Source: Bacteroidota bacterium
GTDB taxonomy: Bacteria > Bacteroidota > Ignavibacteria > UBA10030 > UBA8401
Assembly (NCBI GenBank): GCA_049317705.1
Contig: JBMOHT010000004.1
Span: forward strand, 1-63,652
Length of the DNA: 63,652 bases
Direction: 5' to 3'
Shown here in pieces: positions 1,365 to 26,432 of the stretch. Numbering within the stretch: position 1 is the stretch's first letter; each line of letters starts with the position of its first letter. Made by a program: the position numbers and the translations under genes. The notes below the pieces were generated by a model, which saw only the letters and a list, made by a program, of their open reading frames with translations, had not been told where the DNA came from and made no database searches.

Positions 1365-3089
1365 ATGAAATGGTTCTATAACCTCAAGATCGGCACAAAA
1401 CTGCTCTCCAGTTTTTTGCTCGTCGCTGCCGTAGCCGGTTTTGTTGGCTATTTCGGAATTGTAAAACTGCAGAATGCAGATGAAAGTGATACAATGCTGT
1501 ATGAGAATTACACGGTGCCGCTGAATTATATGTCCGACATCAGTACATATTTTCAGCGTGTTCGAGTGAATACCCGCGACTTACTTTTGGCAACTAATGA
1601 TGCCGAAATGAATGATTATTCGAGCAGGATCGAACAATACCGCGAACAGATCAATAAGCTGGCCGAAAAATACGAAGCAACGATTGTCAGTAACGAGATG
1701 AAAGAAATGTTCTCCGAATTCAAAGCAGCGAGAGTTGAATACGGAAAATACCTCGACCAACTCCAATCCTTAGCCAGAGCCGGCCGCGATAAAGAGGGAT
1801 TTGTTCTTCTGCAAGGCGAGATGAGCAAAGCCTCAAGACGGGAACAGAATATCATTGAAAAGATGGTCGATGCAAAAGTGGTCGCCGCTAAAGATAAATC
1901 AGCCACGAACACAGTAGAAGCAAGTGCTGCAATGTCTGTAATGTACACTGTTGTAGCATTTGCTGTTCTCATCTCAATACTTCTCGGGGTATTCATCGCG
2001 AGGACCATTGTGAATCCCGTGAAGGAAGTGATCACCAATATCCATAATGCCGACTTGAATTCGCGTTTCAATTCAGACCGAGCGGATGAGGTGGGTGATC
2101 TTCAGACCGCATTTGACGGATTCGTGGATCAGATCAAGAACACGCTTGTTCAGGTATCCGAATCATCCGCAGCTGTTGCCAGCGCCAGCACGCAGATCAG
2201 TTCTTCCACGGAAGAACTCGCTGCCGGTGCGCAGGAACAAAGCTCCCAGGCATCCGAAGTTGCAACCGCCGTGGAAGAGATGACCAAGACACTCGGTGAG
2301 ACGAATCAGAATATCCGTAAAGTTGCGGATGGTGCGAAAGAAGCCAAAGAATCAGCTCAAAAGGGAGGCGAAGTGGTCGGCCAGACCATCTCCGGTATGA
2401 AACGGATCGCTGAAGTCGTGAACCAGTCCGCATCGCAGGTGAAGATCCTCGGTGCATCGAGCGATAAGATCGGCGAGATCATCGGCGTTATTGACGATAT
2501 CGCGGACCAGACGAATCTTCTTGCATTGAACGCCGCCATCGAAGCTGCACGTGCCGGCGAACAAGGACGCGGATTCGCTGTCGTAGCAGATGAAGTTCGG
2601 AAACTTGCAGAACGTACATCGAAGGCAACGAAAGAGATCGCCGCAATGATCCGGCAGATCCAGACTGACACGAGTCAAGCTGTTGCCTCGATGGAAAAAG
2701 GGACGCAGGAGGTCGGAAGCGGTATCACGCTTGCTGAACAAGCCGGCACAATGCTGAATGATATCGTCGGCAATGCCCAGTCCGTTGCGGATATGGTCGG
2801 ACAGATCGCCGCCGCCAGCGAACAGCAGTCCAGCGCCAGCGAACAGATCAGCAAGAATGTGGAAGCGATCAGCACGGTCACACAACAGAGCGCAAGCGGC
2901 ACACAGCAGATCGCCCGAACAGCTGAGGACCTGAACCGGTTGACGGAGAACCTGCAGGAGATCCTGAGCAAATTCAATCTCGGCGGGACAGCGGCACCGG
3001 CTCGCCATGATGCATATCAAAAACCAAGAACGACCGTTCAGAAATCGCGGAAAGCGGTGACCGAATACGGACGACTGGTCGAGCATTGA
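1365..3089 (+). CDS. mcp: Methyl-accepting chemotaxis protein 1 (helical periplasmic sensor, HAMP, MCP signalling domain)
   Basis: TM1, about 160-aa helical periplasmic region, TM2, HAMP ([13 protein letters not shown]), signalling hairpin [50 protein letters not shown]. Confidence 0.95.
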
Positions 3090-3207: not shown

Positions 3208-4932
3208 ATGAAATGGTTCTTGGATCTTAAACTCGGCACAAAACTGATAAGCAGTTTTTCATTGATAGCATTGATCGCGGCATACATCGGATATGAAGGA
3301 TATGTGGCTGCAACAGAAATAAGAGAAAATCAGGATGAGTTATATCTCGGTCGACTTATCCCGATCAGGGATCTTGGATATGCCAATGCATCGCTTCTGA
3401 TCGCCCGTGGTGATGTGAGGAATTTTCTTGCCGCCGTAACTCCGGAGGACCAGCAAAAGTATTTGACCGTTGTCAACAACGAATCAAAAAAGGTCGATGA
3501 ATATATCGAAAAATATTCCAAGGGGAACTTGATGCCTGAGGAAAAAGAACAGCTGAGTTTATTTCATACGAACTGGAAGGAATATACCTCGATCCGTGAC
3601 GAAGCCCTCCAAATGGTGCTCGCCGGGAAAAAACAGGAAGCAGTGAAAATGATCGACGGTAATGCCCGTGCATCGATGACGGCGGCACGCAAGACCCTCC
3701 GTGCATTGATCGACTTCAATGCAGTAGAATCGGACAAACTTGATGTTGCTACCGATGCTCAGGCAGAGAGATCCGTCACGAGCATTTTTGTTCTGTTGGG
3801 TGTTGGAGTGGTCCTGTCGCTTTCGATGGGATTCTTCATTGCAAAAGTGATCGCAGATCCGGTGAAAGAACTTGTCGATAATATCAAGAATGCCGACCTC
3901 AATTCCCGCTTCAACAGCGAACGTAAAGACGAGATCGGGGGCCTGCAGACGGCATTCGACGGTTTCGTTGAACAGATCAAACAGACGCTCGTTCAGGTCT
4001 CCGAATCGTCCGCGGCAGTGGCAAGTGCCAGTACGCAGATCAGTTCATCCACCGAACAGCTTGCTGCCGGCGCACAGGAACAGAGTTCCCAGTCTGCCGA
4101 AGTGGCCGGTGCTGTGGAAGAGATGACAAAAACGATCATTGAGAATTCCCGTAATGCGAGCGATACAGCTGAGACCGCAAAGAAAGCAAAAACGACAGCG
4201 CAAAAAGGGGGAGATGTTGTCCGTCAGACGGTTGTTGGAATGAAGGATATCGCTGTTGTCGTCAACAAATCCGCACAGACCGTGAGAGCGCTCGGTAAAT
4301 CAAGCGATCAGATCGGCGAGATCATCAGTGTGATCGACGATATCGCGGACCAGACGAATCTTCTTGCGTTGAACGCCGCCATCGAAGCAGCACGAGCCGG
4401 TGAACAGGGCCGTGGATTCGCCGTGGTAGCCGATGAAGTGCGCAAACTCGCTGAACGAACAACAAAAGCCACAAAAGAGATCGCATCGATGATCAAACAG
4501 ATCCAGGTCGATACGAAGGATGCCGTCTTCTCGATGGATGAAGGGACAAAGAAAGTGAATGACGGTATTCGGCTCGCGGATGAAGCGGGTGAATCTCTGA
4601 AAGAGATCATCGAGATCAGCCAGGTAGTGACCGACAAGATATCCCAGATCGCGGCAGCAAGCGAACAGCAGTCCAGCGCCAGCGAACAGATCAGCAAGAA
4701 TGTGGAAGCGATCAGCACCGTTACCCAGGAAAGCGCAAGCGGCACACAGCAGATCGCTCGCACGGCGGAAGATCTAAACCGGCTGACGGAGAATCTGCAG
4801 ACACTTCTGAACAAGTTCAATCTTGAAGGGACGAAGCAGACGGAGCATCACGATGCGTATAAGAGACCAAAATATACGGCGCAACGATCCCGCAAAGCCG
4901 TGACGGAACACGGACAGCTCGTGGAACATTGA
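3208..4932 (+). CDS. mcp: Methyl-accepting chemotaxis protein 2 (helical periplasmic sensor)
   Basis: Same architecture as MCP1 with a divergent sensor. The cytoplasmic half is nearly identical to MCP1 and MCP4, including a 59-nt identical DNA run. Confidence 0.95.
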
Positions 4933-4993: not shown

Positions 4994-5530
4994 ATGAAGA
5001 AAACAATCTACGTAGTATTGATGCTCTGCACGGTACTTCCAATCATGCTGACGGCTCAGAACAAAGCAACGTTCGGTCAGGTATTGGGTGTGATCAAAAA
5101 ATTGAAGACCGATCTCGCGGTCGTCGGAGTGATGAGCTCCACGCTCAGTTCAAAAGATATCGAGAGTATGACCCGCGCTGCCATGCAGCAAGGAGTGAAA
5201 CTATACGTTACAGAACCGAAGGACGTTCGTGAGGTCTCCGCATTGTACAAAGCGCTGGTGAACGACAAGAAGGCCCAGTTGATCATCATTCCGGACAATG
5301 CCGATAAGACCATGACCGGAATGGGATTCGAATTCATCAAAGAGAATGCCACCATCGACCGCATCGGTATTTGCGCTCCCGATCCTTCCATGATCTCACA
5401 GGGGGCAATGTGCAGTATCGTGAAAGAGAATGAGAAGATCGTTGTCTATATCAATCAAAAGGTGCTGGCATTTGTCAATGCAAAGATGCCCGCAGAAGAG
5501 ATCACCTCCATCAGCTTCGTCTTGAAATAA
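4994..5530 (+). CDS. Secreted/periplasmic 178-aa protein of unknown family, paired with MCP3
   Basis: Signal peptide MKKTIYVVLMLCTVLPIMLTAQ and an AAGGAGG RBS. The stop lies 11 nt before the MCP3 start. Confidence 0.6.
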   Translation: MKKTIYVVLMLCTVLPIMLTAQNKATFGQVLGVIKKLKTDLAVVGVMSSTLSSKDIESMTRAAMQQGVKLYVTEPKDVREVSALYKALVNDKKAQLIIIPDNADKTMTGMGFEFIKENATIDRIGICAPDPSMISQGAMCSIVKENEKIVVYINQKVLAFVNAKMPAEEITSISFVLK

Positions 5531-5541
5531 GGAACTGAATC

Positions 5542-7161
5542 ATGAAGATAGAAACGAAGATCCAGATACCCATTTTTATTTTCTCCGTCCTTCTCGCACT
5601 CGTGCTGAGCGTTCTCTATATGGAATTCCTCGGCAGTGTCGTCTTCGATCAGTTCTCGAAGAACGGATCATCCGTTGCTTCATCTCTGGGGATCTCAGGC
5701 AGGCTCAGTGTGATGATGAGGGATTCTGCGCAGCTCAATACCATCAGCGAATCGGCATTCTCCGATGAGAACGTCCGGTTCGTGTCGTATTATGACGACA
5801 AAGGAGAATGGATCACCACGCGCGGGAATGATGATCATATCGTGATCCCCAAAGAATTGCTGCGGACACAGAAACCGGTAACACAGGAAACGGAGACCGA
5901 GAAACTTGGGACAGTGGAAATGTTTGCCGTTCCGGTATTCGCCCGGGCAGGAGAAACATCGACCATCGGAACGGTTGTACTTGCGATATCAAAAGAGCAG
6001 CTCCATGAGAACCGCAATAACGCTGTTATGCTGGCGATCGGTTCGACAGTGATCCTGCTCGTTCTGGTGTTGGTCAGTTTCCGGTTCATCCTCCGTCAAA
6101 TGATCATTCAGCCGGTCAATCAGGTGATCGAATCCATCAATACAGCGGACCTCAACTCGCAGTTCAACTCCGTCCGCAAAGATGAAGTTGGCGATCTTCA
6201 GCGCTCATTCGATGGATTCGTCACAAATATCAAGAACACCCTCCTTCAGGTCTCTGAAGCATCCTCTGCGGTGGCAAGCGCCAGCGTAGAGATCAGCTCT
6301 TCGGCTGAGGAACTTTCCTCGGGCGCCAGCGAACAGAGTGCGCAGTCAGCCGAAGCATCCACGGCGGTAGGCGAAATGGCCGGCAGCATTTCAGAGAATA
6401 CCCGGAATGCAAAAGAGACGCTCGAAACGGCACATCAGGCGAAACAGACTGCGGAACAAGGCGGTATCGTCGTTCAACGGACCGTCGACAGCATGAAGAA
6501 TATCGCTCTGGTCGTGAATCGGTCCGCTGAAACGGTGAAGACACTCGGAAAATCGAGCGACCAGATCGGCGAGATCGTCAGCGTGATCAACGACATCGCC
6601 GATCAGACGAATCTGCTTGCATTGAACGCTGCCATCGAAGCGGCACGCGCCGGTGAACAAGGACGCGGTTTCGCCGTTGTGGCCGACGAAGTGAGGAAAC
6701 TTGCCGAACGGACAACGAAAGCGACCAAAGAGATCGCATCGATGATCAAACAGATCCAGTCCGATACCAAAGAAGCGGTCATGTCCATGGATGAAGGGAC
6801 CAAGAAGGTCTCCGACGGTATTCAGCTCGCAGACCATGCCGGCGACTCACTGCTGGAGATCATGAAGATCAGCCAGATCGTGACTGAAAAAGTGACACAG
6901 ATCTCAGCGGCGAGCGAACATCAGTCCCACGCCAGCGCGATGATCAGCAACAGCGTCGATAAGATCAACGCCGTCACTCATCAGAATGTTGAGGGGACGA
7001 GGATGATCGCACAATCGGTGGAAGCATTGAATCATCTCACGGATAATCTGCAGTTGCTGCTCGGGAAGTTCAAACTCGGCAATGCCCGGCAGTCAGGCTC
7101 GGATCATCATGAACGTTCACGAAAAGCCGTGTCGGAACATGGGCATTTGGTGGACCATTGA
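5542..7161 (+). CDS. mcp: Methyl-accepting chemotaxis protein 3 (about 150-aa periplasmic sensor of unassigned fold)
   Basis: TM1, periplasmic region, TM2, HAMP ([13 protein letters not shown]), conserved signalling hairpin, C-terminal [14 protein letters not shown] tail. Confidence 0.93.
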
Positions 7162-7253
7162 ACATAGTAATTTTCCGATGACCGTTGAAGGTCGTCGGGA
7201 TACGTATCCGATCACATAGAAAATATTTACCATTAGACGCAAAGGATTTCGCC

Positions 7254-8876
7254 ATGAAACAGACCATACTTTTTCTTCTGATGATATCCGCACTTCTTCC
7301 GTCATCGTCACCGGCTCAGAATTTCAATAAAGTGATCGAGATCGTCGGCGGATTGGAAGAGTCCATGAAAGGACTCATCGCCAAAGAAGAGCGGACACGT
7401 ACGCAGGAGATCGCAGCGATCCGTTCCGACATCACATCGCTGAAGACGGCACTCTTCAAAGAGGATACCGTGAACAGCAAACATCTGCTCATCGCATCCG
7501 CTGATGCACAGAGCGTTCTTGACCGTCTTGAAGTGCTTGAGAACCGACCGGCTCCGCAGGGAGCATCACCCGAAATGAATTCACTTGCTGGACAGTTGGA
7601 TCAGCTGGTCGATGAATTGAAAAAGGTCGTTGACGAGGGAAAAGCGCTGCAGCAGAAACAGCTCACCGTTCCTCCACAGTTATATACGATCAACGGACAG
7701 GTCCGTCACCGCGGTGAAGTTGACGGACGCACGTTCGCTCCCGAGGCCCGCGCGATCGGTTACAACCTTCTCCGTTCACGGTTCACCGTTTCCATTGCTC
7801 CTGCTGCGGATACGAAGATCATGTTCCAACTGCAGGATTCGCGTGTGTTCGGTGCAGGGAATCCGGCACTGAACCGCGGCGTGCAGGACGGTATGTCGAA
7901 ATCCATCGATTTCCATCAGGCATATTTCGCACTCACCAATGTCTTCTCGCTGCCGATGAGTGTGAAACTCGGCAGACAGGAACTTGCATACGGGAAACAG
8001 CGGTTGATCGCTTCCGCGGGATGGAATAATTTTGGCAATACATTCGACGCGCTCTCTGCACAATACAATGCAGGTCCGGCGACCTTTGATGCATTCTTCG
8101 CAAAACTCGTCGGAAGCCAGACAAGCGTCTATTCCGAGAATATCACCGGATTGTATTCCCTGGTAAAATACAGCGATGCTCATACTGCCGATGCGTTCGT
8201 CTTCTATGATAATAATACCACACCGCTGTTAAAAGGGACCGACAAAGGAAAAGCGCGTCTCGGCAGGTATTCCACCGGTATCACCCTGATGGGAAAACCA
8301 AAACCGTTCGATTACGAAGCGGAGTTGATCCTTCAGCGCGGTTCGTATGCGGTCACGGACAGTTCTTCCGTCTCATCGATCTCCGCATATCTCTACTCGG
8401 TCTCAGCGGGATATCTGATCGATGCTAACAGCAAACTGCGTGTCGGTGTGAAATTCCAGGTAATGTCCGGCGACGATAATCAGAAGGTCGGGAAGTATTC
8501 GAGCTATAATACACTCTTCTCATCCGCTCATTCATTCTTCGGATATATGGATTTCTTCCCGAAGTCATCCCCGGAATACGGTGTTCGCGCTTATTCCGTC
8601 CATTCAGGCATGGAACTGTCGCCGGAACTTTCATGGAACGCCGATATGTACTATTACCTGTATGACGCGGTGCCGACATTGAAAACGTCATCCGGCGCGA
8701 TCGTGAAGGACCAGTCGCTCGGTTACGAGGCGGACCTTACGATGGCCTATAAATACTCCAGTATGGTAACGATCAATTACGGCGGCAGTGCGTTCATTCC
8801 TGAAACAGCGATGATCGCGTTGAAAGGTCCCGCAGTTTCCTATTGGGGATTTGTAATGACAACGATCAATTTTTGA
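7254..8876 (+). CDS. Outer-membrane beta-barrel porin, alginate-export (AlgE-like) family candidate, with N-terminal coiled coil
   Basis: ATG 7254 gives the signal peptide MKQTILFLLMISALLPSSSPAQ. GRQELAYGKQRLIASAGWNNFGNTFDAL resembles the alginate-export signature. The C-terminal ...TTINF is an aromatic terminus typical of OM barrels. Confidence 0.6.
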   Translation: MKQTILFLLMISALLPSSSPAQNFNKVIEIVGGLEESMKGLIAKEERTRTQEIAAIRSDITSLKTALFKEDTVNSKHLLIASADAQSVLDRLEVLENRPAPQGASPEMNSLAGQLDQLVDELKKVVDEGKALQQKQLTVPPQLYTINGQVRHRGEVDGRTFAPEARAIGYNLLRSRFTVSIAPAADTKIMFQLQDSRVFGAGNPALNRGVQDGMSKSIDFHQAYFALTNVFSLPMSVKLGRQELAYGKQRLIASAGWNNFGNTFDALSAQYNAGPATFDAFFAKLVGSQTSVYSENITGLYSLVKYSDAHTADAFVFYDNNTTPLLKGTDKGKARLGRYSTGITLMGKPKPFDYEAELILQRGSYAVTDSSSVSSISAYLYSVSAGYLIDANSKLRVGVKFQVMSGDDNQKVGKYSSYNTLFSSAHSFFGYMDFFPKSSPEYGVRAYSVHSGMELSPELSWNADMYYYLYDAVPTLKTSSGAIVKDQSLGYEADLTMAYKYSSMVTINYGGSAFIPETAMIALKGPAVSYWGFVMTTINF

Positions 8877-8938: not shown

Positions 8939-11098
8939 ATGATCAGTATCCGTCAATGGTTCCTTCTTATGGTGTTGTGCTCAGCAGTGACGCTGACAGC
9001 CAACGCTCAGCAGGCAGAAGAGAAAAAAGCGCTTAGCGTTCGCGAACAGCTGGAGCAGTTAGCGGCTCAGGAAAAGAGCCAGCCGGCCAAGAATAATATC
9101 AATAAGCATGAGGATGAACAGGTTGCAAGAGTAAAGCGGCACAGCATTCCTGCCGCAGCAGAACAGAAAGAAATTACAGCACCGCAGGAAATTGTATCGG
9201 TCCCTGCACCGGAATATTCCAGCACGGAGGTGCCGAAGTCGGCACCTGTGAAAGCGAAGGATATCCGCGATGGACCAAACACCGGTACCGGATCGGCCGG
9301 AATATATGCGATCGTTGCAGTAATACTTCTCTCTTTTCTCACTTTCATCTTGATAAGGAATACAATTATGAATTGGCTCAATAATCTAAAGATCAGCAGT
9401 AAACTGATGCTTGCCTTCAGCTTGGTATGCATCATTGCGACGATCATCGGATACGTCGGATTCTCATCGACAAACGATATGGCGGCCGCGAGTCAGGTGA
9501 TGTATGAAAAACAGGCCTATCCCATCGGCGTGCTTGCTAATATGGATGACCGTTTTCAGCGTATCCGCGTGAACACCCGTGACGTTCTTCTTGCAACGAC
9601 AGATGCTGATATGGAAGATAAAATTGAAAAGATCAAAACATACCGCGAAGAGATCGACGGCTTTGCAAAGAAATATGAAACAACCATAATGACTGAGGCC
9701 GGCAGGAAAAAATTCGAGGAATTCGTCGATGCAAGGAAAGTATACGGCGGTTATTTAGATGAACTTATCTCACTCGCAAAATCCGGTAAAGATGCTGATG
9801 GCTTCAAACTGTTAAATGGCGATATGGCTAAGGCTTCCAGAGTTGAACAGGACCTGATCTTCGGAATGCTTGAACAAAAGATGAATCTTGCTGAAGCATC
9901 GGCCACTCAAAATAGTGAAGATGCGCAGTCCGCTTCAATGCAAATACTGGTCATTCTTGCATTCGGCGTGGTCGTTTCATTCGGTCTCGGACTCTTCATT
10001 GCACGCTCCATCGCAAATCCTGTGAACGATGTCGTTCAGAATATCAAGAATGCCGACCTCCATTCACAGTTCAATTCCACCCGCAAGGATGAGATCGGAC
10101 TTCTGCAGCAGGCATTCGACGGTTTCGTTCTCTCCATCAAACAGACACTTGTGCAAGTATCGGAAGCATCCGCCGCCGTTGCCAGCGCGAGCACGCAGAT
10201 CAGTTCCTCAACCGAAGAACTTGCCGCCGGTGCACAGGAACAGAGTTCACAATCCGCCGAGGTCGCCGGTGCGGTCGAAGAAATGACCAAGACCATTATG
10301 GAAAATTCGCGCAACGCCGGTGATACCGCAACCACTGCCAAGAAAGCGAAAGATACCGCTGTTGAAGGAGGAGATGTTGTCCGCCAAACTGTCGACGGTA
10401 TGAAAGAGATCGCGAAGGTCGTGAACAAATCCGCTGATACGGTGAAAGCACTCGGCAAATCGAGCGATCAGATCGGCGAGATCATCAGCGTGATCGACGA
10501 TATCGCAGACCAGACGAATCTTCTTGCATTGAATGCCGCCATCGAAGCAGCGCGTGCCGGTGAACAGGGACGCGGATTCGCCGTCGTTGCCGATGAAGTG
10601 CGCAAACTTGCCGAACGGACAACGAAAGCAACGAAAGAGATCGCATCGATGATCAAACAGATCCAGACCGATACGAAAGAAGCGGTCATTTCGATGGACG
10701 AAGGGACGAAGAAGGTCGGCGAAGGGATCACCCTTGCAGATCGCGCCGGTGCATCACTGGAACAGATCGTTGGGATCAGTCAAATGGTGACCGATAAGAT
10801 CGCACAGATCGCAGCGGCAAGTGAACAGCAGTCCAGCGCCAGCGAGCAGATCAGCAAGAATGTGGAAGCGATCAGCGCCGTCACACAACAGAGCGCCAGC
10901 GGAACACAGCAGATCGCACGCACGGCAGAAGATCTGAACCGCCTCACGGAGAATCTGCAGGAACTTCTGGCGAAGTTCAACCTGAATGCGTCAGCGGACA
11001 GCAGTCGGCGTGAATCAACACCGGTCCGCCAGAAGAGCTATCACCAGAAATCGAAAAAAGCTGTTTCCGAACACGGACAATTGGTAGAACACCACTAA
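8939..11098 (+). CDS. mcp: Methyl-accepting chemotaxis protein 4 with a 143-aa N-terminal extension (alternative internal start 9368)
   Basis: From ATG 9368 ([18 protein letters not shown] 8 nt upstream) the protein matches MCP1/2 in length and layout. The in-frame upstream part has a signal peptide, a low-complexity region and an extra TM. Confidence 0.9.
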
Positions 11099-11201: not shown

Positions 11202-11603
11202 ATGATCCAATGGAGTAAAGAGATGGATGTTCAGATAGAATCGATCGACGTTCAGCATCGGACGTTGATCGCTTTGATCAATGAACTGCAGGATGTGATC
11301 GACAACGGCAGACCGGAAGTGATGGTCGGTTCGATCCTCTCTAAAGTGATCGATTACACTCATTATCACTTCGAGCACGAAGAGAATTGTCTCATTGTTG
11401 GCTGCTATAGTAAGCTCAAAGAACATCAATGTGTTCATAACGAGGTCTCGCGGAAACTAAAACAGATGGAACGGGAATACCTCAATGGAACGCCGGGGGT
11501 AGCACCGCGGGTGCTCGAACTTCTGCAGCGTTGGGCAATGGACCATATTATGAAGACGGACCGCCAATATTCCGCGCAACTGGTGATCGCCGGTTTGCAG
11601 TGA
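11202..11603 (+). CDS. Bacteriohemerythrin (free-standing di-iron O2-binding protein)
   Basis: All ligand motifs are present: DVQH, HYHFEHEE (HxxxE), HQCVH (HxxxH), HIMKTD (HxxxxD). 133 aa. Confidence 0.9.
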   Translation: MIQWSKEMDVQIESIDVQHRTLIALINELQDVIDNGRPEVMVGSILSKVIDYTHYHFEHEENCLIVGCYSKLKEHQCVHNEVSRKLKQMEREYLNGTPGVAPRVLELLQRWAMDHIMKTDRQYSAQLVIAGLQ

Positions 11604-11698: not shown

Positions 11699-13435
11699 AT
11701 GAAATTGTTGACAGTGTTTAATAACCTTAACGCGCGATGGAAATTCGTCGCCGTATCAATGTTATCGGCACTCCCCATCGTTGCCCTTGTGCTCCTGTAC
11801 GTCCTTCCGGAGATCCGTGAAGCGCGGTATGAGGAACGCCAGGCCTCGACCAAACAGGTCGTTGATATCGCTTATAATCTGATGAAGGAATACGACGAGC
11901 GTGTTCAAAAAGGGGAATTCACTCTTGCCGAAGGACAGAAACGATATCTCGACCGCATCAACAAGATGCGATATAACAAGGACGATTATTTCTGGGTGAA
12001 CGATATGCACCCCACGATGATCTTCCATCCGATCAAGAAAGAACTGAACGGTAAGGACATCTCGGGGAATAAGGATCCGAACGGAAAGCACCTGTTCGTG
12101 GAAATGGTCAAGGTCTGCGCCGACAAAGGTGAAGGATTCGTGAATTATGAATGGCCGAAACCGGGATTCGATAAGCCCGTGCCGAAAATATCCTTTGTGC
12201 GGCTCTATAAACCGTGGGGATGGATGGTCGGGAGCGGAGTATATATCTATGATATTGAAATGCACGTGGATGAAGCACGTGTCGGCGTGTTCCTGGGAAT
12301 GTTCGTTGCAACGATTGTAGCGCTGGCACTCGGATTCTTTGTCGGAGGGTTATACAAAAAATCACTTTCGGAGGTCGTGTCCAAAATGGACAATGCCGAA
12401 CTGAACACACAATTCAATTCCAACAGGGCGGATGAGATCGGTGCACTGCAGCGCTCGTTCGATACATTCGTCTCCAATATCCGCACAACGCTTATACAGG
12501 TCGCCGAATCATCGTCATCGCTGTCGATGGCAACGGATGAGATCAAACGGGGGACGGAAGAACTTGCCGCCGGCAGTCAGGAACAGAGCTCACAGGCGAA
12601 TGAGGTTGCGGCTGCCGTCGCCGAGATGACCTCGACCATCACGGAAAATTCAAAGAATGCAAATGCAACGACCGCTACGGCGCGTCAGGCGAAAGAGGCC
12701 GCCGTTGCCGGCGGTGCGGTGGTAAAGGATACGATCTCCGGAATGAAAGAGATCGCCGATGTTGTCATCCGTTCCGCCGAAACTGTGCGGACACTCGGAA
12801 GGTCCAGCGATCAGATCGGCGAGATCGTTTCGGTGATCAACGATATTGCGGACCAGACCAATCTTCTTGCATTGAACGCCGCCATCGAAGCCGCACGTGC
12901 CGGCGAACAAGGCCGCGGCTTTGCCGTTGTGGCGGATGAAGTGCGAAAACTCGCCGAGAGAACAACGAAGGCGACCAAAGAGATCGAGACAATGATCAAG
13001 AATATCCAGACGGAGACCAAGGATGCAGTCGTTGCGATGGAGGTCGGGACAAAGAAAGTGAATGACGGTATCATCCTTGCGGATAAAGCAGGTGCATCAC
13101 TCAAAGAGATCGTTACGGTGAGCCAGAATGTGACGGATATGATCGTGCAGATCGCATCGGCGAGCGAGGAACAGACGAGTGTCTCCGAACAGATCAGCCG
13201 GAATATCGAAGGGATCAATTCCGTTGCGCAGGAAAGTTCCAAAGGGTCACAGGAGATCGCCCGGGCTGCTGAGACATTGTTCCATCTCTCCACACAGCTG
13301 GAGGAACTCATCGCGAAATTCAATCTCGACACTCGGTCATCCGTTGATCAGAAGAGTTCAGGGGTGAAACGGACAAACCGGAAGAATGAACAATATTCAT
13401 ATTCTAAGAACAACGGGCATGCTGTAACGGCATGA
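11699..13435 (+). CDS. mcp: Methyl-accepting chemotaxis protein 5 with single-Cache (sCache_2-like) sensor
   Basis: [16 protein letters not shown]...[13 protein letters not shown]...[13 protein letters not shown] is a Cache-type periplasmic signature. HAMP and the MCP signalling hairpin follow. Confidence 0.9.
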
Positions 13436-13476: not shown

Positions 13477-15192
13477 ATGAAAACACGACGATCACTCAAT
13501 GTTCAGCAGAAGCTCTATCTTTTTCCGGCGATCATCATCGGCGTAATGTTCATTGCGTGGGGGTGGTATTCCGAGGTCAATCAGGGGAAGGAATCAGAGA
13601 ATGCGTTCCGCGGACAGCTTTCGGTACTGGCGCATACATCCACATTCATGAGCCACGGCTCCGCCGAACAGCTCGCGCAGGAAAAAGGATGGGAATTCCA
13701 TCGCATTCTTGTTGATGGAGATGCGGACACGAGTCTTTTTGGAAAGTGCGAACAGCGTGCAATGTCGACGCTCAAAGCAGATGCGTCAATGAAATCATAC
13801 GAAGAGATGTTCCCTACCGATTCGGCGAAGATGCTTGCCGTATTCGTCCCTGCGCGGATCCAGAGTGAATGCTACACATGCCACAATGAATCCGGTATCG
13901 ACATCTTCGGCGGAAAGAAAGAAGGGGAATTGGTAGCGGTCTTCGGTGTCGCCGGTTCATTGCAGGAAGTGGAAGCGCATCAGGCGGAGATCTTCTATCT
14001 GACAGCGATCATCTGTATCGTATGTGTTGTTGTGACCATCGTTGTCATACGGTCCACCTCCCATGCGATCGTCGTCGGTCCTGTGAAGGAACTGTCATTG
14101 CAGTCGGAAAAGATCTCCACCGGAGACCTCCGTTCGATGGTAACACCGCATCTCGAGAAGAAGATGGGCAGCCAGGATGAGGTTGGCGCACTGTCCCGTT
14201 CCTACAAGACGATGCTTGATTCGCTCCGTTCACTCATTCTGCGGTTGATGGACTCGGCGAATTCCGTCGCGTCGGCATCACAGCAGATCAGCAGCACTTC
14301 CGAAGAGATCGCCGCAGGAACATTGCAGCAGTCATCACAGGTAGGCGAGGTCTCAACGATGATCGAAGAGATGTCGAATTCCATCCATAAAAATTCTCAA
14401 AATGCGGTAGAAACAGCGGAAACAGCCCGAAAAGCGAGCCAATCGGCTGCCGGCGGAGAGCAGCTCGTCCGTCAGACCATCGATGGAATGAAACGCATCG
14501 CGATCGTAACGCGTGATTCCGCGAAAACAGTGAATACTCTGGAACGGTCCAGTGAACAGATCAGCGAGATCATCTCCGTAATCGACAGCATTGCGGACCA
14601 GACCACACTGCTGGCGCTGAATGCCGCCATTGAAGCGGCTCGTGCGGGTGAACAAGGGCGCGGATTCGCTGTTGTGGCAGGAGAAGTTCAGAAATTAGCT
14701 GACAGGACGACTTCCGCCACCAAAGAGATCAGCGACATGATCAAAAAGATCCAGTCCGACACCAGGGAAGCGGTACGCTCCATGGATGAAGGAACAAGAG
14801 AAGTCGAAAAAGGAATTGAACTTGCCGAGCAGGCCGGTACAGCACTCACCGAGATCAAGACCACCTCAGAACAGATGAGCGCCATGGTAACGAAGATCGC
14901 CGACGCAAGCAAGGATCAGGCGGTGAATGCTGAACAGATGACGAAGAATGTTGTTTCCATCACGAATATGACCTCACAGACCTCCACCGGTGTTCAGCAG
15001 ATCGCATTGGCGTTGGAAGAACTGAGTAATTTAACAACAACGCTGCAGGACATAGTGAATAATTTCACGTTGGACGGACAATCAAAGGATGACGGCAAAG
15101 CATATGAGCATTCGTATTCCGAAAGAGAAACATCGGCTGTGCACCGGCAAGAAGACGTATTCAACGAGAATGAATATGAGCATGCTCAATAG
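13477..15192 (+). CDS. mcp: Methyl-accepting chemotaxis protein 6 with periplasmic c-type haem (CxxCH) sensor
   Basis: CYTCH at 13870-13884 lies in the periplasmic region between TM1 and TM2. The HAMP and signalling hairpin are more diverged ([32 protein letters not shown]). Confidence 0.9.
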
Positions 15193-15226
15193 TGAGCGCT
15201 GTTTTTAGAAAGAATGATATTGTGTG
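15190..15226 (+). repeat. Solo end fragment related to the terminal repeat of the 18411-18600 element
   Basis: TAGTGagcgCTGTTTttagaaagaatgATATTGTGT versus TAGTGCTGTTTccaataaatcATATTGTGT at 18412. Both begin at the TAG stop of an MCP gene. Confidence 0.4.
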
Positions 15227-15277
15227 AAGGCATTTACCGATTCCCTCTCGTGTGATAGTGGACCAGAAAGAAATGTT

Positions 15278-15685
15278 ATGTCGCAAGTACTTTGGAATGA
15301 TTCATTGAGCGTAAGTATTCCGTCGATCGATACTCAGCACAAAGCATTGATCGCCATGATCAATGAATTGGACGGAGCAATTCTCCGCGGACAATCCATG
15401 CTGGTTACCGGTGCGATCATTGAGAAATTACTGATGTATGCAGAACATCATTTCGCGTATGAAGAACAGTGTATGAAGCAGTGTGCATTTGCACAAATCG
15501 AGACGCATCGTTGCCAGCATGATGAACTCCGTGAGAAAGTAAAAGAATTCAGTATCGCGTACGCTAATTCCGTTCCCGGAATCAGCGAGGGTCTTTTGGA
15601 ATTTCTCTACCAATGGCTGCAGGGTCACATTTTACGATCGGATAAACAATATACATCCCAATTTCAATCGCACAATATCACGTAG
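15278..15685 (+). CDS. Bacteriohemerythrin 2
   Basis: DTQH, HHFAYEE (HxxxE), HRCQH (HxxxH), HILRSD (HxxxxD). ATG 15278 is preferred over the GTG 15224 extension. Confidence 0.88.
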   Translation: MSQVLWNDSLSVSIPSIDTQHKALIAMINELDGAILRGQSMLVTGAIIEKLLMYAEHHFAYEEQCMKQCAFAQIETHRCQHDELREKVKEFSIAYANSVPGISEGLLEFLYQWLQGHILRSDKQYTSQFQSHNIT

Positions 15686-16296: not shown

Positions 16297-18414
16297 ATGA
16301 AACGCTTTCAAGATCTCAAAATACGAACGAAACTCCTTAGTGCTTTTCTTGGAATGGCATTGGTCTCCGGTGTGATCGGATGGATCGGATATGATTCAGC
16401 CCAGACCATGATGCAACTTCAGGATACGATCTACCTGGACCGGCTCGTCCCGATCCGTGATCTCGGTTTTGCCGGCAATGCAGTCCATCATGCGGATTCC
16501 AGGATCAAACAATTGGTCGCTGTAAAGGATCCCGTTGAAAAACGGCGATTGAATACTGAGATCGCAGCTGAAATAGCCAAAACGAATGAATTGATCGATG
16601 CATACAGTAAGACCTATCTTGTGGAAGAAGAGGTCACGAATTTGGCGAAATTTCGAGAGGAATGGCCGAAATTTGTCTCAGCTGCGGACGAGATCCGTTT
16701 GCTGGTTCAGCAGGGCCGGAATTTCGATGCGCAGAGGATCATTGATTCGGAATTATCGAAACGTTCTGAATCATCAGTGGCCTTCATTGAAGAATTGGTC
16801 AATGTCAATGCACGAGTGGCTGAACAGATCGACCACGAAACGGATACAACGTCCAATTGGGCAGTGACGAAATTATTAATAGCACTGTCCGCCGGACTCG
16901 TTATTTCCATTATGGTGGGAATGTTCTTCTCACGATACATTGCAAATATTCTGAACCAAATGGTGAACGCATCCAATAAGATAGCACAAGGTGAGATCGA
17001 TCAACGGATCGATTATCGTTCCGAAGATGAATTCGGAAAACTTGCCGATTCATTCCGAGGAATGATCGATTATATGCACGGCATCGCCACCGCATCTGAA
17101 GCGATCGGGAAAGGGAATCTTGATGTGAACGTTACCGCTAAATCATCGAATGATACGCTGTCGAACAGTTTCATCCGTACAGCGAACGTTCTGAAAAGTA
17201 TGAGCAAAGAGATCAACACGCTGAACGGTGCAGGACGGAATGGTTCTCTGACCGTGCGCGGAAATGCGTCGCAGTATCATGGTGAGTTCAAACAGATGAT
17301 CCAGGGGATCAATGAAACGCTCGACGCCATCGTCATTCCGCTCAACGAGAGCAATGATGTACTCTATAAAATGTCGCACGGCGATCTCTCCGTACGGTTG
17401 AATAACAATTATAAAGGTGACCTTCAGAAGATGAAGCAGTCCGTCAACACGGTCGGCGAATCACTCTCCAGTGCCCTGCAGAATGTCGCATTCTCCATCC
17501 AGGCAACGGCAACGGCAAGCAGTCAGATCTCCGCATCGGTCGAAGAAATGACCTCGGGATTGAACGAACAGTCCAGTCAGACCTCCGAAGTGGCGAGCGC
17601 AGTCGAGGAGATGGCGAAGACCATCATGGAGAATTCCAAGAATGCCGTCGATACTTCTGAGACCGCAATGAAAGCAAAACAGTACGCGCAGGAAGGATTC
17701 GACGTCGTAGAAGAGACAGCGGTCGGTATGACGAAACTTGCGGAGATCGTCCGCAGATCGGCTGAGACCGTTCACGAACTCGGCCGCTCGAGCAATCAGA
17801 TCGGTGAGATCGTCCGCGTGATCGAAGATATCGCCGATCAGACGAATCTGCTCGCTCTGAACGCCGCGATCGAAGCAGCACGCGCCGGTGATCAGGGACG
17901 CGGATTTGCCGTCGTCGCCGATGAAGTGCGCAAGTTGTCCGAACGGACGACGAAATCCACAAAAGAGATCGCGGTAATGATCAAGAAGATCCAGAGCGAG
18001 ACCTCGGGTGCCGTGGAATCCATGGAAGAAGGAACACGCAGTGTTGATGTCAGCATCGAACAGACGGAGAAAGCCCGCGTATCACTGAATCACATCCTCG
18101 ACATCTCTCAAAAGGTGACAGAGATGGTCTCCCATATCGCAACGGCAAGCACCGAACAGACGAGGGCCAGCGATGTGATCAGCAAGAATATCGATGCCAT
18201 CAGCGCGGTCGCACAGCAAAGCTCCGTCGGCAATCAGCAGATCGCCAAAGCAATGAACGATCTGAATCAACAGACCGACCATCTGCAGAACCTCATCGGT
18301 ACATTCAAATTCTCCGGTGATGAATCGAAGATGCATGCGCCGAGAACTGTCCGGAATGATAAGAAGCATCGTCAGCCGGCGTTCGAGAACGGTTCAATGG
18401 AATATCATAACTAG
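16297..18414 (+). CDS. mcp: Methyl-accepting chemotaxis protein 7 (helical periplasmic sensor, at least two HAMP-like units)
   Basis: [14 protein letters not shown] start (ATG 16297). HAMP ([14 protein letters not shown]), a second HAMP-like segment ([22 protein letters not shown]), then the signalling hairpin with [21 protein letters not shown]. Confidence 0.9.
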
Positions 18415-18632: not shown

Positions 18633-19151
18633 ATGAGAATGAATATCCAGCCGACGAACGAAGAACTCGTCATGCGAGACGGAGAGTTCATCGTATCGAA
18701 GACCGATCTGAAAGGTCAGATCACGTACGGTAACAGGACCTTTATGGAATTTGCGGGACATCCGGAAAAAGACCTTCTGGGAGCGCCGCACAATATCATC
18801 CGTCATCCCGATATGCCGCGGGGCGTTTTCCAACTTTTGTGGGACACGATCCGCAGCAACGCGGAGATCTTCGCCTATGTCAAGAATATGAGCGCAAACG
18901 GCGCATTCTATTGGGCGTTTGCAAATGTCTCTCCGGTGGTGGACGGGAACAATAATGTTATCGGATACTGCTCCGTCCGCCGTAAACCGTCATCGTCTGC
19001 CATTCAGACGCTGATTCCGGTCTACCGTGAAATGGTCCGGATCGAACAAAAGAGTAAATCAAAAGAATCGGTCATAGAATCGGTTGAATACCTTAAAAAT
19101 TTTTTGAATGAAAGGACGATGAGTTATGAAGAGTTTATTCTCAGTATTTAA
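18633..19151 (+). CDS. Free-standing Aer-type PAS protein 2
   Basis: Paralog of 15730-16248, also 172 aa ([19 protein letters not shown]...[21 protein letters not shown]). Confidence 0.85.
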
Positions 19152-21522
19152 CCGATGGTCATTGAAAGGGAAGATCGATTCCATGTTCCTGCTGCTGGGA
19201 GCATTCTCAATGATGCTTGCAATAGCCGTTGTCTTCAGTTTCTATCAGATCAATCTGCTGAATGAAAAATCGGATTCCGTCAGCGAGGATGCTGTTGTGA
19301 TGCGTGAGATACAGTACCACACCTCTCAGGTCTGGCAGTATGTGACCGATTATGCCCTCACATTCGATGAAGCAGCCGATATGAAGGAAATTACCGATCA
19401 CAAGAATGCTGCGGTCGAAAATATCAAACACGTCATGAAGTCAGAAGCATTGTCCGCTGAAGATAAAGCGCTGCTGCTGAGTGTTCAAGCCGGTATTGCA
19501 CAGATGGCAACCGATGGAGTTGCGATGGGCAAAGCCTACCGTACGGACAAACGGGCAGGAGACCGCTTGATGACTGAATATGATGCGATCGCCGACGGAA
19601 CAGTCAAGAAGATCGACCAACTGGTGAAAGATGCCGGTGCCAATGTGATCGGCATTGCTGCTGAAAAGACTGCTGCCATTCAGACCATTATGATCGTGAT
19701 CGGCGTACTGCTCATGATCAGCATGGTGATGGGTTACTTCGTCTCACGGTGGCTCTCCGGTTATGTCACCAGACCGATCAACAAGATCAGCGCGGTCTCC
19801 AAAAAGATCGCCGAAGGTCAGTTCGTGGAACGCATCACCAATATCAACGAGAAGGATGAACTCGGAACCCTTTGCTGGGAATTCAACGACATGGTCGACC
19901 AGATCGAGACCTTGTTGAAGGAGATCATCACATCGATCGAATATTCAAGCAAGGGAAAATATTTCCGTAAACCGATCCCCGACGGCTTGAAAGGGATGCT
20001 GAACAAGACAGCGATCCAGGTGCAGCAGGCACTGCAGGAACAGGAACACCGCGAAAAACTGATTGAGCACGATAAACAATACCTCAGCACCAAAACAGCT
20101 GAACTTCTGGCAGCAATGGAGAAATTCTCTCACGGCGATCTTACCGTATCGGTCGATTCTGAGAAGGATGATGAGATGGGGAAACTGTTCGACGGTTTCA
20201 ATCTGTCTGTAAATAATCTTAACAAGAAGATGCGTGCGGTCAATGATGCTGCTGAAAAAGCCGCACACGCCGGTTCCACCATCAGTTCCAGCACCACACA
20301 GATGGCTGCCGGTGCCGAAGAACAGTCCACCCAATCCTCCGAAGTGGCGAGCGCCATGGAAGAGATGACATTGACCATCGGCGACAATTCCAAGAACGCA
20401 CAGATCGCCGTTCACACGGCGCAGCAGGCGAAGAATGCCGCTGAACACGGCGGTTCACTCGTGCAGAAGACCGTCCACGGAATGGAGAAGATCAGCGATA
20501 TCGTCCGGAGTTCGGCTGATACCATCCACACACTCGGGAAATCGAGCGTTCAGATCGGCGAGATCGTCGGCACCATCAACGATATCGCAGACCAGACCAA
20601 TCTGCTTGCACTCAACGCCGCTATCGAAGCAGCGCGTGCCGGCGAACAAGGAAGAGGGTTCGCGGTCGTTGCGGATGAAGTACGTAAACTTGCAGAACGG
20701 ACAACACGCGCAACAAAAGAGATCGCAATGATGATCCGTAAGATCCAGGAAGAGACCACCACAGCGGTCGAAGCAATGGAAAAAGGGACGCGCAATGTGG
20801 AAGAGGAACGGGTCCTTGCAAAAGAGGCCGGTAATGCATTGACGGAGATCGTTACGATCGTGAACAAGGTCACCGACATGATCACGCAGATCGCGGAAGC
20901 GAATGCACAGCAGACCAAAGCAAGCGATGAGATCAGCAGGAATATCGTCGGTATCTCTTCGGTGACGAATGAGAATGCCCATGCGATCGATCAGATCTCG
21001 CGTTCGGCGGAAGAGGTCGCTCAGATCACTACAACGCTCTCATCGATGGTGATGGAATTCGTCCTGTTCGGCAACAACGAGCATCTTCGCGGACGAGGCA
21101 CCAGTCTTGCCGTTGCACCCGGCGGTAGACTCGTTCCGGAACGGCAGAAGAATGAATCATTCGATATCGACGCCGCCATCGAAGCGCACAATCAATGGAA
21201 AGGCCGCATTCAGAACCTGCTGAACGGCAGAGAACATATGACCGTGGACCAGGTAACGACCCATCTGCAATGCAAACTCGGCAAATGGTATTACGAGGAA
21301 GGGCAGTCGCAATACAAATCCAACTTCCACTTCCAGGAACTCGGAACGGCGCATGAAAAACTGCATGCCGTGCTGAAAGATGTCGTGCGGTTATACAACG
21401 ATGGACGGAAGAATGAAGCCCGCGAAGCAAGTGCCAGCGTGAACACCCTTTCGAAGAAGGTGGTGCAGGCATTGAACGAATTGAAGAACGATATGATGGT
21501 GCAACGAACGGAAGAAGTATGA
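19126..21522 (+). CDS. mcp: Methyl-accepting chemotaxis protein 8 with two HAMP-like units and a C-terminal CZB (chemoreceptor zinc-binding) domain
   Basis: C-terminal HNQW-x24-CKLGKW-x21-HEKLH fits the CZB motif Hxx[WFYL]-x21-28-Cx[LFMVI]Gx[WFLVI]-x18-27-HxxxH. The signalling hairpin is present. The start overlaps the PAS2 stop by 26 nt. Confidence 0.9.
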
Positions 21523-22538
21523 AGATCCTCATAGCCGAAGATGATGCACTGGTCCGCATCATGTTCCGGAAGGTCATGAAGGGGACCGAGTTCACCTTGG
21601 TCGAAGCAATGAACGGCGAAGAAGCTCTTGCGAAGATGAGATCGGAAGAGTTCGACGCCGTCATCACCGACTGGATGATGCCGAAGATGGACGGGATCGA
21701 ACTGATCGCGAACATCCGGAAACGTCAAAGTGATCCTCCGTATATCCTTATGGTGACGGCGATCTCCACTGACGATGCGATGAAGAAAGCACTCGATGCC
21801 GGTGCGGATGATTTCATCACCAAGCCGTTCTTTCGTGAACCGCTCCTTCAGTCAATTCGGAACGGTATCCTTCGCAGCAAACAGGGGAAAGGTGTCTCCA
21901 AGATCATGTCCGCCAAGAGCGCGGCTACGAGGCACTCAATGATCGCGATCGGTATCGCCTCAAGCACAGGCGGTCCGCAGACGCTGATGAAATTATTTCC
22001 GGATATTCCTAAGTTCACCAATGCGGCGATCTTTCTAGTGCAGCACGGTCCGGCCTGGATGCTCCGGTCGTTCGCGCTGCGGCTGAAAGAGATCACACCG
22101 ATGGGAGTGTTCATCGGTGAGGACGGGATGAGATTCAATCCCGGCAATATCTACATCGCACCGGGTGATATCCATATGATCGTCGATCCGAACAGCGATG
22201 TATTGCGGCTGATCGATGATCCGCCGGAAAATTACTGTAAGCCGGCTGCTGATCCGCTCTTCCGCAGTATCGGTGCTGCATTCGGAACGTCCGCCGTCTC
22301 CGTCGTGCTCAGCGGAATGGGGAAGGACGGCACCATCGGTTCCGGATACATCGCTGCCTCCGGCGGGACGGTCCTCGCGCAGGATCCGTCAACGGCTATT
22401 CTTCCGTCCATGCCGAAAAGCATTGTCGATCTCAGAATTGCCTCAGAGGTTCATCCGATAGAAAAACTTGGGAAAGCACTGGCAAATGTGGTGAACGATC
22501 TTACGCACAAACCAAAACTGAAAATATACGGCACATAA
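21519..22538 (+). CDS. cheB: CheB-type methylesterase with receiver domain (CheB1)
   Basis: REC (ILIAEDD...DWMMPKMDG...KPF) plus esterase domain with SSTGGP (Ser), LVQH (His) and GMGKDG (Asp). An ATGA overlap links it to the MCP8 stop. Confidence 0.85.
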
Positions 22539-22716: not shown

Positions 22717-24561
22717 ATGAGAACGATCATCAACAACATGGGGATCCGGTCGAAGATCATTTTACCCATATCGGTTTTTGCCGTAATAACGGTCCTGATA
22801 TTGTATAAATATTTTGATTCGACAATTCTTGACGCAAAGATCCAGGAACATGTTGCTGAAGCCCGGGCATTGATAGTCAGTTCCGAATCTGCCAGGGAAT
22901 ATGCTGCCGATCAGTTCCGTCTTGGTGTCTTTAAGGAAGGACTGAAAGATAAGGATCAAATTCTCCATACGGTTCCGGTCGTTGCTGCAATGCAGGTCAT
23001 TCAGAAAAAAGCGGATGAGATGGGTGTGATCTTCAAGGTTCCGAAGATCTCTCCGCGTAATCCTAAGAATCTTCCGGATGAATACGAAATTACAGTCCTG
23101 AAAAAACTCGAAAACGGACGACTGAATGAATACTGGGAATTTGACCGGGAAAAAGCTCAGCTTCGTTATTTTCGTCCGGTAAAACTGACGAAAGAATGCC
23201 TCGCGTGTCACGGAGATCCTGCAACGTCCGCCGAACTTTGGGGGAATACCGAAGGCAACGATGTGACCGGGACAAGGATGGAGAATTGGAAGGAAGGGGA
23301 GGTGCATGGTGCATTTGAGATCATCACCAACATGCAGCATGCCGTGATGGAAGCACATTCTGACTCCCGCATCGGTGCGCTGATCGTTATAGCGTGCGGT
23401 ATCTGCATTGTGATCGTCGGAATTTTTATTGCACGGTGGCTGAGCGGTCCGATCACGGAATTTTCAGTCCAGGCGGACAGTGTGGCAAAAGGTGATCTTC
23501 GTTTCAAACATACACCATTGCTCGAGAAGCAGATGAACACCGGTGATGAAATGGGACTGCTTGCACGGTCGTTCGGCGTTATGATCAATTCACTCAGGGG
23601 TATCATCCGGCAGGTCGGTGAATCAAGTGCATCAGTAGCGAGTGCGAGTATCGAGATCAGCGCTAGTACAGAACAGATGGCTGCCGGAGCACAGCAGCAA
23701 ACGCAGCAGGCCGCCGAAGTTGCAAGTGCCGTTGAACAGATGACGAAGACGATCATTGAGAATGCAAAGACCGCCCAAGAGACAGCAGAAACGTCAAAAA
23801 AAGCAAAAATGGCAGCAGAACAGGGCGGAAAAGCAGTGGAAGATACCGTCAATGGAATGAAACGGATCGCCGAGGTCGTACGCTCTTCCGCGGTAACGGT
23901 GCAGGATCTGGGAAAATCGAGCGATCAGATCGGGGAGATCATCGAGGTGATCGATGAGATCGCCGACCAGACAAATCTGCTTGCACTGAATGCGGCGATC
24001 GAAGCAGCACGAGCCGGTGAGCAGGGACGCGGTTTCGCCGTGGTTGCAGACGAAGTGCGTAAACTTGCGGAACGAACGACGAAAGCGACGAAAGAGATCG
24101 CTGTGATGATCAAGCAGATCCAGAGCGAAACGAAAGGTGCAGTGAATGCAATGGAAGCCGGGACCAAAGAAGTGGACCGCGGTATCCTTCTTGCGGACAA
24201 GGCCGGAGCTTCGTTGCAGGAGATCGTTTCCATCAGTCAACAGGTGACGCAGATGATCTCACAGATCGCTGCAGCGAACGAGCAGCAATCCCGAGCGAGC
24301 GAATTGATCGCGAAAAATGTTGAAGGAATGAGTGTGGTAACACAGGAAACTGCGAACAGCGCGCATCAAGTGGCGTTGACCGCAGACGATCTCAGTAAAT
24401 TGACCGGCCATCTCGAAGAGATCGTCGGGAAATTTCATCTGAGCGATTCGGAAGATATGCTGTCGAAACAACATCATTCCAGGAATCAATCAGCACCGGA
24501 TCAGAATCGGGGAAGCAAAGCTGTGACGAGCACCGGAAGGATCGTTGAGCGTTCACGATAG
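22717..24561 (+). CDS. mcp: Methyl-accepting chemotaxis protein 9 with periplasmic c-haem sensor (DUF3365/Tll0287-like)
   Basis: [13 protein letters not shown]...[20 protein letters not shown]...GEVHGAFEI carries CLACH at 23197-23211. HAMP and the signalling hairpin follow. Confidence 0.9.
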
Positions 24562-26424: not shown

Positions 26425-26432
26425 GAGTGACC

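Follow-up and report, generated by a model that had tools for sequence, protein, structure and literature searches.

How the adaptation enzymes CheR and CheB are brought to chemoreceptors is understood only for receptors that carry the NWETF-type pentapeptide at their C-terminus; their route to other receptors is largely open. Such pentapeptides occur on around 10% of receptors, mostly on those of the classes with 34 or 36 heptads (34H or 36H). The question is raised anew by a stretch of 63,652 nucleotides of an Ignavibacteria member of the Bacteroidota (assembly GCA_049317705.1, contig JBMOHT010000004.1, positions 1 to 63,652; below, the window). The + strand of the window is a chemotaxis and flagellar region that contains cheW, nine genes for methyl-accepting chemotaxis proteins (MCP1 to MCP9) amid small sensor-type genes, cheB1 and then the main che operon. 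Several of the MCPs end in a short conserved tail, and the question is what this tail does. As set out below, the tail is a genuine motif, shared throughout the lineage and distinct from the pentapeptide family, and it may serve as a tethered docking site for a partner that acts near the methylation region.

The copies in the window are best described using the family consensus, [KR]-S-x-Φ-A-V-R-x-N-G-x-[LI]-[VI]-x-H, in which K/R is numbered -4, A 0, V 1, R 2, N 4 and G 5. Translation of the + strand gives terminal copies in MCP1 (3045-3086, then the stop), MCP2 (4888-4929), MCP3 (7117-7158), MCP4 (11051-11095) and MCP9 (24514-24558, with four residues beyond the core). An earlier, sequence-only reading of this DNA quoted these five tails and that of MCP7; all six translate exactly over their full ranges, with a stop codon directly after each. 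The same reading held that the motif is missing from MCP5, MCP6 and MCP8, which turned out to be wrong in detail. MCP8 has an internal copy (21106-21135), which follows the signalling domain and precedes the CZB domain, and MCP5 and MCP6 retain degenerate remnants. In MCP5 (13400-13432) the remnant is in register, with the K at position 2, the NG at positions 4-5 and the V at position 8 kept and the stop two residues on, and in MCP6 (15133-15162) AV and the hydrophobic pair are kept and the turn glycine is lost. The tail of MCP7 (18370-18411) is likewise a degenerate remnant, which aligns in register with the position table given below and keeps the NG turn, the M at position 7 and the H at position 10. 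With five terminal copies, one internal copy and three remnants, all nine MCPs are covered, which points to a common origin: the nine paralogs derive from a tailed ancestor and the motif is decaying in MCP5, MCP6 and MCP7. The location at the extreme C-terminus that had been proposed holds for MCP1, 2, 3, 4 and 9 but fails for MCP8 and for the retrieved proteins P0121, P0163 and P0221, which have the motif ahead of a CZB domain.

All nine MCPs matched the Pfam model MCPsignal (PF00015), the signalling domain with the conserved hairpin tip, with E-values of 1e-47 to 1e-56. Their tails were covered by no Pfam model, including those of the known MCP accessory domains CZB, PilZ and hemerythrin; a CZB domain was found only in MCP8, downstream of the motif. 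Considering all 487 six-frame open reading frames (ORFs) of at least 60 amino acids in the window, the pattern [AS][VI]xxxGx[LIVFM][LIVF] lies within 15 residues of the stop in MCP1, 2, 3, 4 and 9 only, and in the long + strand ORFs it occurs eight times in 23,299 residues. The tail motif of the window MCPs is thus real and far beyond chance. An alignment of the DNA of the five terminal copies made clear that the codons of the conserved residues differ synonymously (GCG, GCC or GCT for Ala, GTG or GTT for Val, CTG, CTC or TTG for Leu and GGA or GGG for Gly); similarity was also looked for in the DNA 3' of the five stop codons, and none was seen. Together, the synonymous differences and the unrelated DNA past the stop point to selection at the protein level, and the conservation of the tail reflects purifying selection on the peptide. 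The same two observations rule out a DNA-level repeat element or a terminator as its cause.

To establish the distribution of the tail, the C-terminal 274 amino acids of MCP2 were used as query against a collection of 5.8 billion proteins, which returned 7013 relatives, the best 120 of which were listed. It superseded a word-indexed search whose query was a short profile built from the window tails; that one had recovered three fragments only and was too insensitive. Most of the complete C-termini among the best 120 of the 7013 relatives have the same type of tail after an unrelated linker, e.g. KSRVAVRANGALVRHGDA, YAVRSNGKIVKS and LAVRQNGKLVHI. A HMMER profile that combined the C-terminal helix with the linker and the motif was run against 1.84 billion representative proteins. 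It matched 264 clusters formed at 50% identity with E<=1e-3, of which 32 reached E<=1e-10. Among those listed, the full-length matches span 534-1132 amino acids, a range which implies that many sensor architectures carry the tail, and P0059 (480 amino acids, with a match to MCPsignal only) is a soluble receptor with the motif. In P0121 the motif precedes the CZB domain as it does in MCP8, and the matches in P0163, P0221 and P0106 lie well short of the C-terminus. Over all retrieved proteins the strict motif was present in 165 of 253 unique C-terminal extensions, against 0.2 expected from shuffled extensions. The sequence-only reading had named restriction of the motif to recent paralogs of this genome as part of what would refute it, and the search of related receptors that it proposed gave a different outcome: the motif occurs in Ignavibacteriales, Melioribacter, Stygiobacter and many unclassified Bacteroidota metagenome-assembled genomes (MAGs), and the receptors that carry it differ widely in their sensor domains.

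The residue frequencies within the motif are [KR](61%)-S(64%)-x-Φ(86%)-A(84%)-V(98%)-R(85%)-x-N(93%)-G-x-[LI](94%)-[VI](100%)-x-H(32%), where the glycine (position 5) and the two hydrophobic positions were imposed by the search pattern; KSKLAVRQNGKLVHV is an example of the canonical form. In 50% of the cases the stop lies exactly two residues past the motif, and in 74% no more than three. The linker that precedes the motif measures 4-41 amino acids, with a median of 20, and is not conserved in sequence, which bears out the variable linker noted earlier for the window MCPs. In MCP1 it runs from the end of the signalling helix (KFNL) to the motif (2982-3044). The window tails, K-A-V-[TS]-E-[HY]-G-x-L-V-[ED]-H, deviate from the canonical form in having K instead of Φ at position -1, T or S instead of R at position 2 and H or Y instead of N at position 4, and they represent a derived sub-variant of the lineage-wide motif. 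The closest relatives of this variant outside the window are P0001, a metagenome protein with a tail near-identical to that of MCP3, P0035, P0004 and the MAG GCA_008933835.1; MCP4 itself is present in the public collection as P0162. Tails of the VAVRSNGKLVHH type are found on receptors from relatives of the cultivable Ignavibacterium album and Melioribacter roseus.

A degenerate-DNA scan with the pattern AVRxNGK[LF]V over one genome per species gave at least 120 loci. Among the 120 listed, 12 hold genuine MCP tails, and the remaining 108 matched by chance, in unrelated ORFs that belong to other phyla. The genuine tails came from Ignavibacteria, Ignavibacteriales, Ignavibacteriota, Melioribacter, Stygiobacter, MAGs named "Bacteroidota/Bacteroidetes bacterium" and other MAGs. 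This distribution among the loci listed suggests that the motif is absent from other phyla, and the motif is a class-level, lineage-wide feature of Ignavibacteria-type Bacteroidota. Within a genome it is found on many but not all receptors. In the loci L003 (12535-14286) and L126 (8341-10005) the MCP directly upstream of the gene for a HEAT-repeat protein is without the tail motif, and the syntenic MCP3 of the window keeps it. Our searches of the accessible literature turned up no description of this tail motif.

What the tail looks like, and where it sits, was derived from MCP2. In an AlphaFold2 model of its last 274 residues, based on an 80-sequence alignment, the helical hairpin of the signalling domain had predicted local distance difference test (pLDDT) values above 90, the linker (residues 238-256 of the fragment) had values below 50, and the motif formed two short strands, K263-V265 and L271-E273 (KAV and LVE), with a pLDDT of around 70. 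The motif is thus predicted to fold as a small beta-hairpin on a disordered linker. The N-G of the canonical motif suits a tight beta-turn, as this dipeptide is preferred in type I' turns. In full-length MCP2 the HAMP domain ends at around residue 258, the hairpin tip lies at around residue 398 and L539 is the last residue of the C-terminal helix. The arms of the bundle therefore comprise 140 and 141 residues, or 40 heptads, and the receptors belong to the 40-heptad (40H) class, an assignment made by residue count of MCP2. Sites with a methylation consensus occur at residues 280-288, 483-492 and 504-512, the uppermost of these candidates being 25-31 residues (~40-45 Å) from the origin of the tail. 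This origin is the membrane-proximal end of the bundle, at ~210 Å from the baseplate formed by CheA and CheW. If the array architecture is canonical, CheA and CheW are ruled out as partners of the tail by geometry, since ~210 Å is beyond the reach of linkers of 4-41 residues. Considering the remoteness of the baseplate and the shortness of the linkers, the site of action of a partner would have to be close to the adaptation region or HAMP domain, or else to the membrane.

This position invites comparison with the pentapeptide tether. NWETF-type pentapeptides, which on Tar/Tsr-like chemoreceptors tether CheR and phospho-CheB, are defined by a C-terminal xZxxZ, where Z stands for F, W or Y (PMC7390727), the receptors that carry them are of class 34H or 36H, and Salmonella CheR binds the pentapeptide via Q182, R187, G188, G190, G194 and R197 in a loop of its beta-subdomain (PMC2577667). 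The present tails share with the NWETF tether a non-conserved, disordered linker (4-41 residues here, with the low pLDDT values in MCP2), a presence on only a subset of the receptors of a cell and an origin close to the methylation region, at the end of the bundle that faces the membrane. There are also differences. None of the window tails matches xZxxZ in its last five residues: they lack the aromatics at positions 2 and 5 and end in LVEH, VEHH, LVDH or VERSR, so that the tail is, as had been claimed, unrelated in sequence to NWETF. In addition, at ~12 residues the motif is longer, and its predicted fold is a beta-hairpin, whereas NWETF forms a single added strand; it tolerates a CZB domain behind it and linkers as short as four residues. 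The receptors are not 34H or 36H but 40H by our own count in MCP2, and the cognate CheR of the window (28248-29126, + strand) lacks the pentapeptide loop of the beta-subdomain. The alignment of Salmonella CheR ("yfmrGTGPHeglvrv") with window CheR ("yfhSS----egrftv") reveals a four-residue deletion at this site, and the best match of the latter in the PDB is CheR1 of Pseudomonas aeruginosa (E 1e-40, compared to 1e-30 for Salmonella CheR), as for a CheR of the pentapeptide-independent type. The lack of xZxxZ, the 40H class and the loop-less CheR place the tail outside the pentapeptide family.

What, then, is the tail for? The reading that we favour, though tentatively and as possible rather than probable, is that of a tethered docking motif for a partner near the methylation region, namely CheR and/or CheB, bound directly or via the HEAT protein that is encoded in the main operon. 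The ~12-residue hairpin would hang by its disordered linker from the membrane-proximal end of the 40H cytoplasmic bundle, and would recruit a soluble protein to work on that bundle's upper part, the one that is methylated. The likeliest partners would be the adaptation enzymes, either in direct contact or through the HEAT protein. Besides CheR, the candidates in the window are the methylesterases CheB1 (21519-22538, + strand), the start of which overlaps the MCP8 stop by 4 bp (21519-21522), and CheB2 of the main operon (32541-33668, + strand). Tailed receptors might then raise the local enzyme concentration to their own benefit and to that of nearby tail-less receptors in the array, in the way NWETF receptors do in E. 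coli, with a peptide, a predicted fold and a recognition site that would all differ from the NWETF case. The strength of the motif, its breadth and lineage spread, the selection at the protein level, the predicted hairpin, the geometry, the patchy distribution over paralogs and the constant HEAT neighbour are all in line with docking.

Several observations weigh against it. As CheR lacks the loop insertion that spans R187-R197 in Salmonella, a direct contact between CheR and the tail would have to be a new one. Some linkers measure only 4-7 residues, far below the ~35 residues of the E. coli tether, and the motif can be internal, ahead of a CZB domain. With respect to the HEAT protein, its co-occurrence with the motif is seen at the level of the lineage only and is confounded by phylogeny; moreover, a response-regulator gene adjoins the HEAT gene upstream, and HEAT proteins of other chemosensory systems, discussed below, have other partners. 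If the tail is nevertheless a tether, tethering has evolved more than once, and the tail would represent a second, unrelated tethered motif, which is class-wide and found on 40H receptors beside a CheR that cannot bind the pentapeptide. If the HEAT protein is the partner, a role would be assigned to a recurrent and unexplained component of chemotaxis operons. In practical terms, the motif is a short, synthesisable peptide that can be used to fish for the partner.

The HEAT protein (472 amino acids; 26833-28251, + strand) matches the Pfam models HEAT_2 and HEAT_PBS, and its N-terminal half matches binder scaffolds of the alphaRep type with HEAT_PBS repeats (E 1e-47 to 1e-70). In the window the main operon has the order response regulator-HEAT-CheR-CheY-CheY-CheZ-like-CheA-CheB2, followed by flgB/C, fliF and fliG. 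The HEAT gene lies directly upstream of cheR in all seven loci compared, in the order [response regulator]-HEAT-CheR-CheY-CheY-CheZ-CheA-CheB, and the stop of HEAT and the start of cheR share 4 bp in both the window and L129. By its repeats of the HEAT_PBS type and its location inside the che operon in each of the seven loci, it fits the description of the chemotaxis-associated HEAT_PBS proteins. Full-length orthologs (415-492 amino acids, 25-92% identity) were named only from Bacteroidota, Bacteroidetes or Ignavibacteriales MAGs, and the HEAT protein was the sole operon component found to be lineage-restricted. One could imagine that the hairpin docks in the concave face of the HEAT protein while the latter holds CheR, which would make a three-part tether. 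In this specific form we consider the proposal quite unlikely. A chimera of the HEAT protein and the MCP2 tail, modelled with AlphaFold2 from a single sequence, showed no docking, in a model (mean pLDDT 62.6, with the tail as a helix at ~30) of too low a quality to weigh for or against the proposal. If the proposal is true, a pentapeptide-independent CheR would be recruited to 40H receptors by a dedicated adaptor in Ignavibacteria, a mode of recruitment undescribed for any chemotaxis system, and che-operon HEAT proteins would have their first function.

The HEAT proteins known from other chemosensory systems resemble that of the window only at the level of the repeats, and interact with CheY, CheD or CheF rather than with receptor tails or CheR. 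Cpc7 of Myxococcus reportedly works with partners of the CheY/CheD type, not with receptor tails. It is said to be paired with CheY7, and the adjacency of response regulator and HEAT protein in the window recalls this pair; the stand-alone response-regulator gene directly upstream of the HEAT gene (26427-26813, + strand) is also present in L127, L128 and L129. OE2401F of Halobacterium likewise works with Che proteins (CheY, CheD or CheF), not with receptor tails (PMC2666748). A further gene, for a HEAT-repeat protein of 648 amino acids, lies directly after that for CheB in a Desulfovibrionaceae MAG of an unrelated phylum (L131, 2413-5555; GCA_017455745.1), and a second distant HEAT homolog was not in a che context. 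The haloarchaeal, myxobacterial and Desulfovibrionaceae cases show that HEAT proteins recur in chemosensory clusters. CheR-TPR fusions also exist (PMC3447774). Like the chemosensory HEAT_PBS proteins, these share with the window the genetic coupling of an alpha-solenoid repeat module to chemotaxis enzymes; in the window, however, the solenoid is a separate protein and consists of HEAT rather than TPR repeats.

A rival reading makes the tail a signal for localisation or array assembly. The hairpin would then attach to a landmark factor, either membrane-proximal or polar, or to the membrane itself, and so draw receptors to the polar array instead of recruiting adaptation enzymes. The layout, a trans-acting motif on a flexible linker, is that expected for such a signal; the residues ahead of the hairpin are basic (61% of the cases have K/R at position -4) and soluble receptors such as P0059 carry the motif too. 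There is also a precedent, in that Helicobacter pylori TlpD without its last 45 residues loses its polar localisation and keeps its binding of CheW and CheV (PMC13001251). In TlpD, as in the present case, a chemoreceptor C-terminal segment outside the signalling domain is concerned, and the function of that segment is not kinase coupling. However, the TlpD segment lies in or after a CZB domain, in a soluble receptor of a different phylum, and is thus a different domain with no sequence motif in common. Considering furthermore that the conserved operon shows no evident candidate for a landmark gene, and that the motif-less receptors of the same genomes presumably still join the arrays, we regard a localisation role as rather unlikely.

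Alternatively, the hairpin could stay at home and act as an intramolecular or intradimer regulatory element, by folding on the HAMP domain or adaptation region of its own receptor, or by pairing of the two tails of a dimer as a four-stranded sheet, and in this way tune the signalling state or the access to methylation sites. Linkers of 4-10 residues would hold the hairpin beside the top of its own bundle, its retention where a CZB domain follows fits a structural role at that place, and according to the position table both faces of the hairpin have hydrophobic residues. Yet the linker varies freely in length (4-41 residues) and sequence, which is unusual for a fixed docking site, and three of the nine paralogs let the motif decay with the signalling domain intact. 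Such an element is, in our view, distinctly improbable.

We find it very improbable that the tail is a signal for stability or turnover, i.e. a C-terminal degron or a 'timer' based on Asn-Gly deamidation. It is true that the motif is usually near the C-terminus and that most copies (93% N) contain Asn-Gly, the dipeptide most prone to deamidation. Unlike carboxyl-end tags, however, the motif has unconserved last two residues (positions 9 and 10, a mixture of H, E, K, P, S and Q), and it also serves within the chain, ahead of CZB. The window lineage, moreover, swapped the N for H or Y with the rest of the motif kept, so the Asn is not essential, and the preference of N-G for the type I' beta-turn accounts for its presence without a timer. 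Finally, a functionless relic of shared ancestry, as the close relationship of MCP1-4 (aligned C-terminal segments 46-77% identical to MCP1) and the decaying copies in MCP5-7 might suggest, can hardly be credited and is already contradicted by the retention of the motif across class-level divergence while the adjoining linker was randomised, by the synonymous differences between the tail codons and by the 264 clusters at 50% identity that carry the tail. The remaining probability falls to a partner outside those considered.

Some neighbouring genes add to the picture of this region. Individual receptors seem to be paired with separate small sensor proteins: PAS-only genes precede MCP7 and MCP8, the second of these (18633-19151) overlapping the MCP8 start (19126) by 26 nt, and hemerythrin genes lie 3' of MCP4 (11202-11603) and MCP6 (15224-15685). 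A small ORF (4994-5530, + strand) precedes the MCP at 5542-7161 (+ strand), and the same pair is found in L001 (3128-5327), L003 (11981-14289) and L126 (7789-10008). In the MCP of the pair, Pfam recognises an sCache_4 domain in L003 and no ligand-binding domain in L001, L126 or the window; the small ORF has a weak match to ABC_sub_bind in the window, L001 and L003, with none on record in L126. The conservation of the pair across loci suggests that the MCP is a binding-protein-dependent chemoreceptor.

Between cheB2 and flgB lies a small conserved ORF (33640-33933, + strand, 97 amino acids; 81-97 amino acids in the family), with orthologs in L125 (16756-17001), L127 (16821-17090), L128 (13182-13430) and L129 (16792-17058). 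It has the invariant pattern GN...V...I.F.C.CG..K...Y and no Pfam or NCBIfam match. One segment, (V/I)(I/V)R(D/N)G.K(L/I)V, resembles the MCP tail; a comparison with the tail profile using hhalign was not significant (probability 0.13%). The ORF may encode an accessory protein of chemotaxis or of the flagellum that is specific to this lineage. The MCP/che cluster also contains genes for outer-membrane porins, Alginate_exp-like and OprB-like (7185-8876 and 24748-26034, both + strand), and the same porin gene pair lies between a cheB and the response regulator-HEAT genes in L129 (6515-9197).

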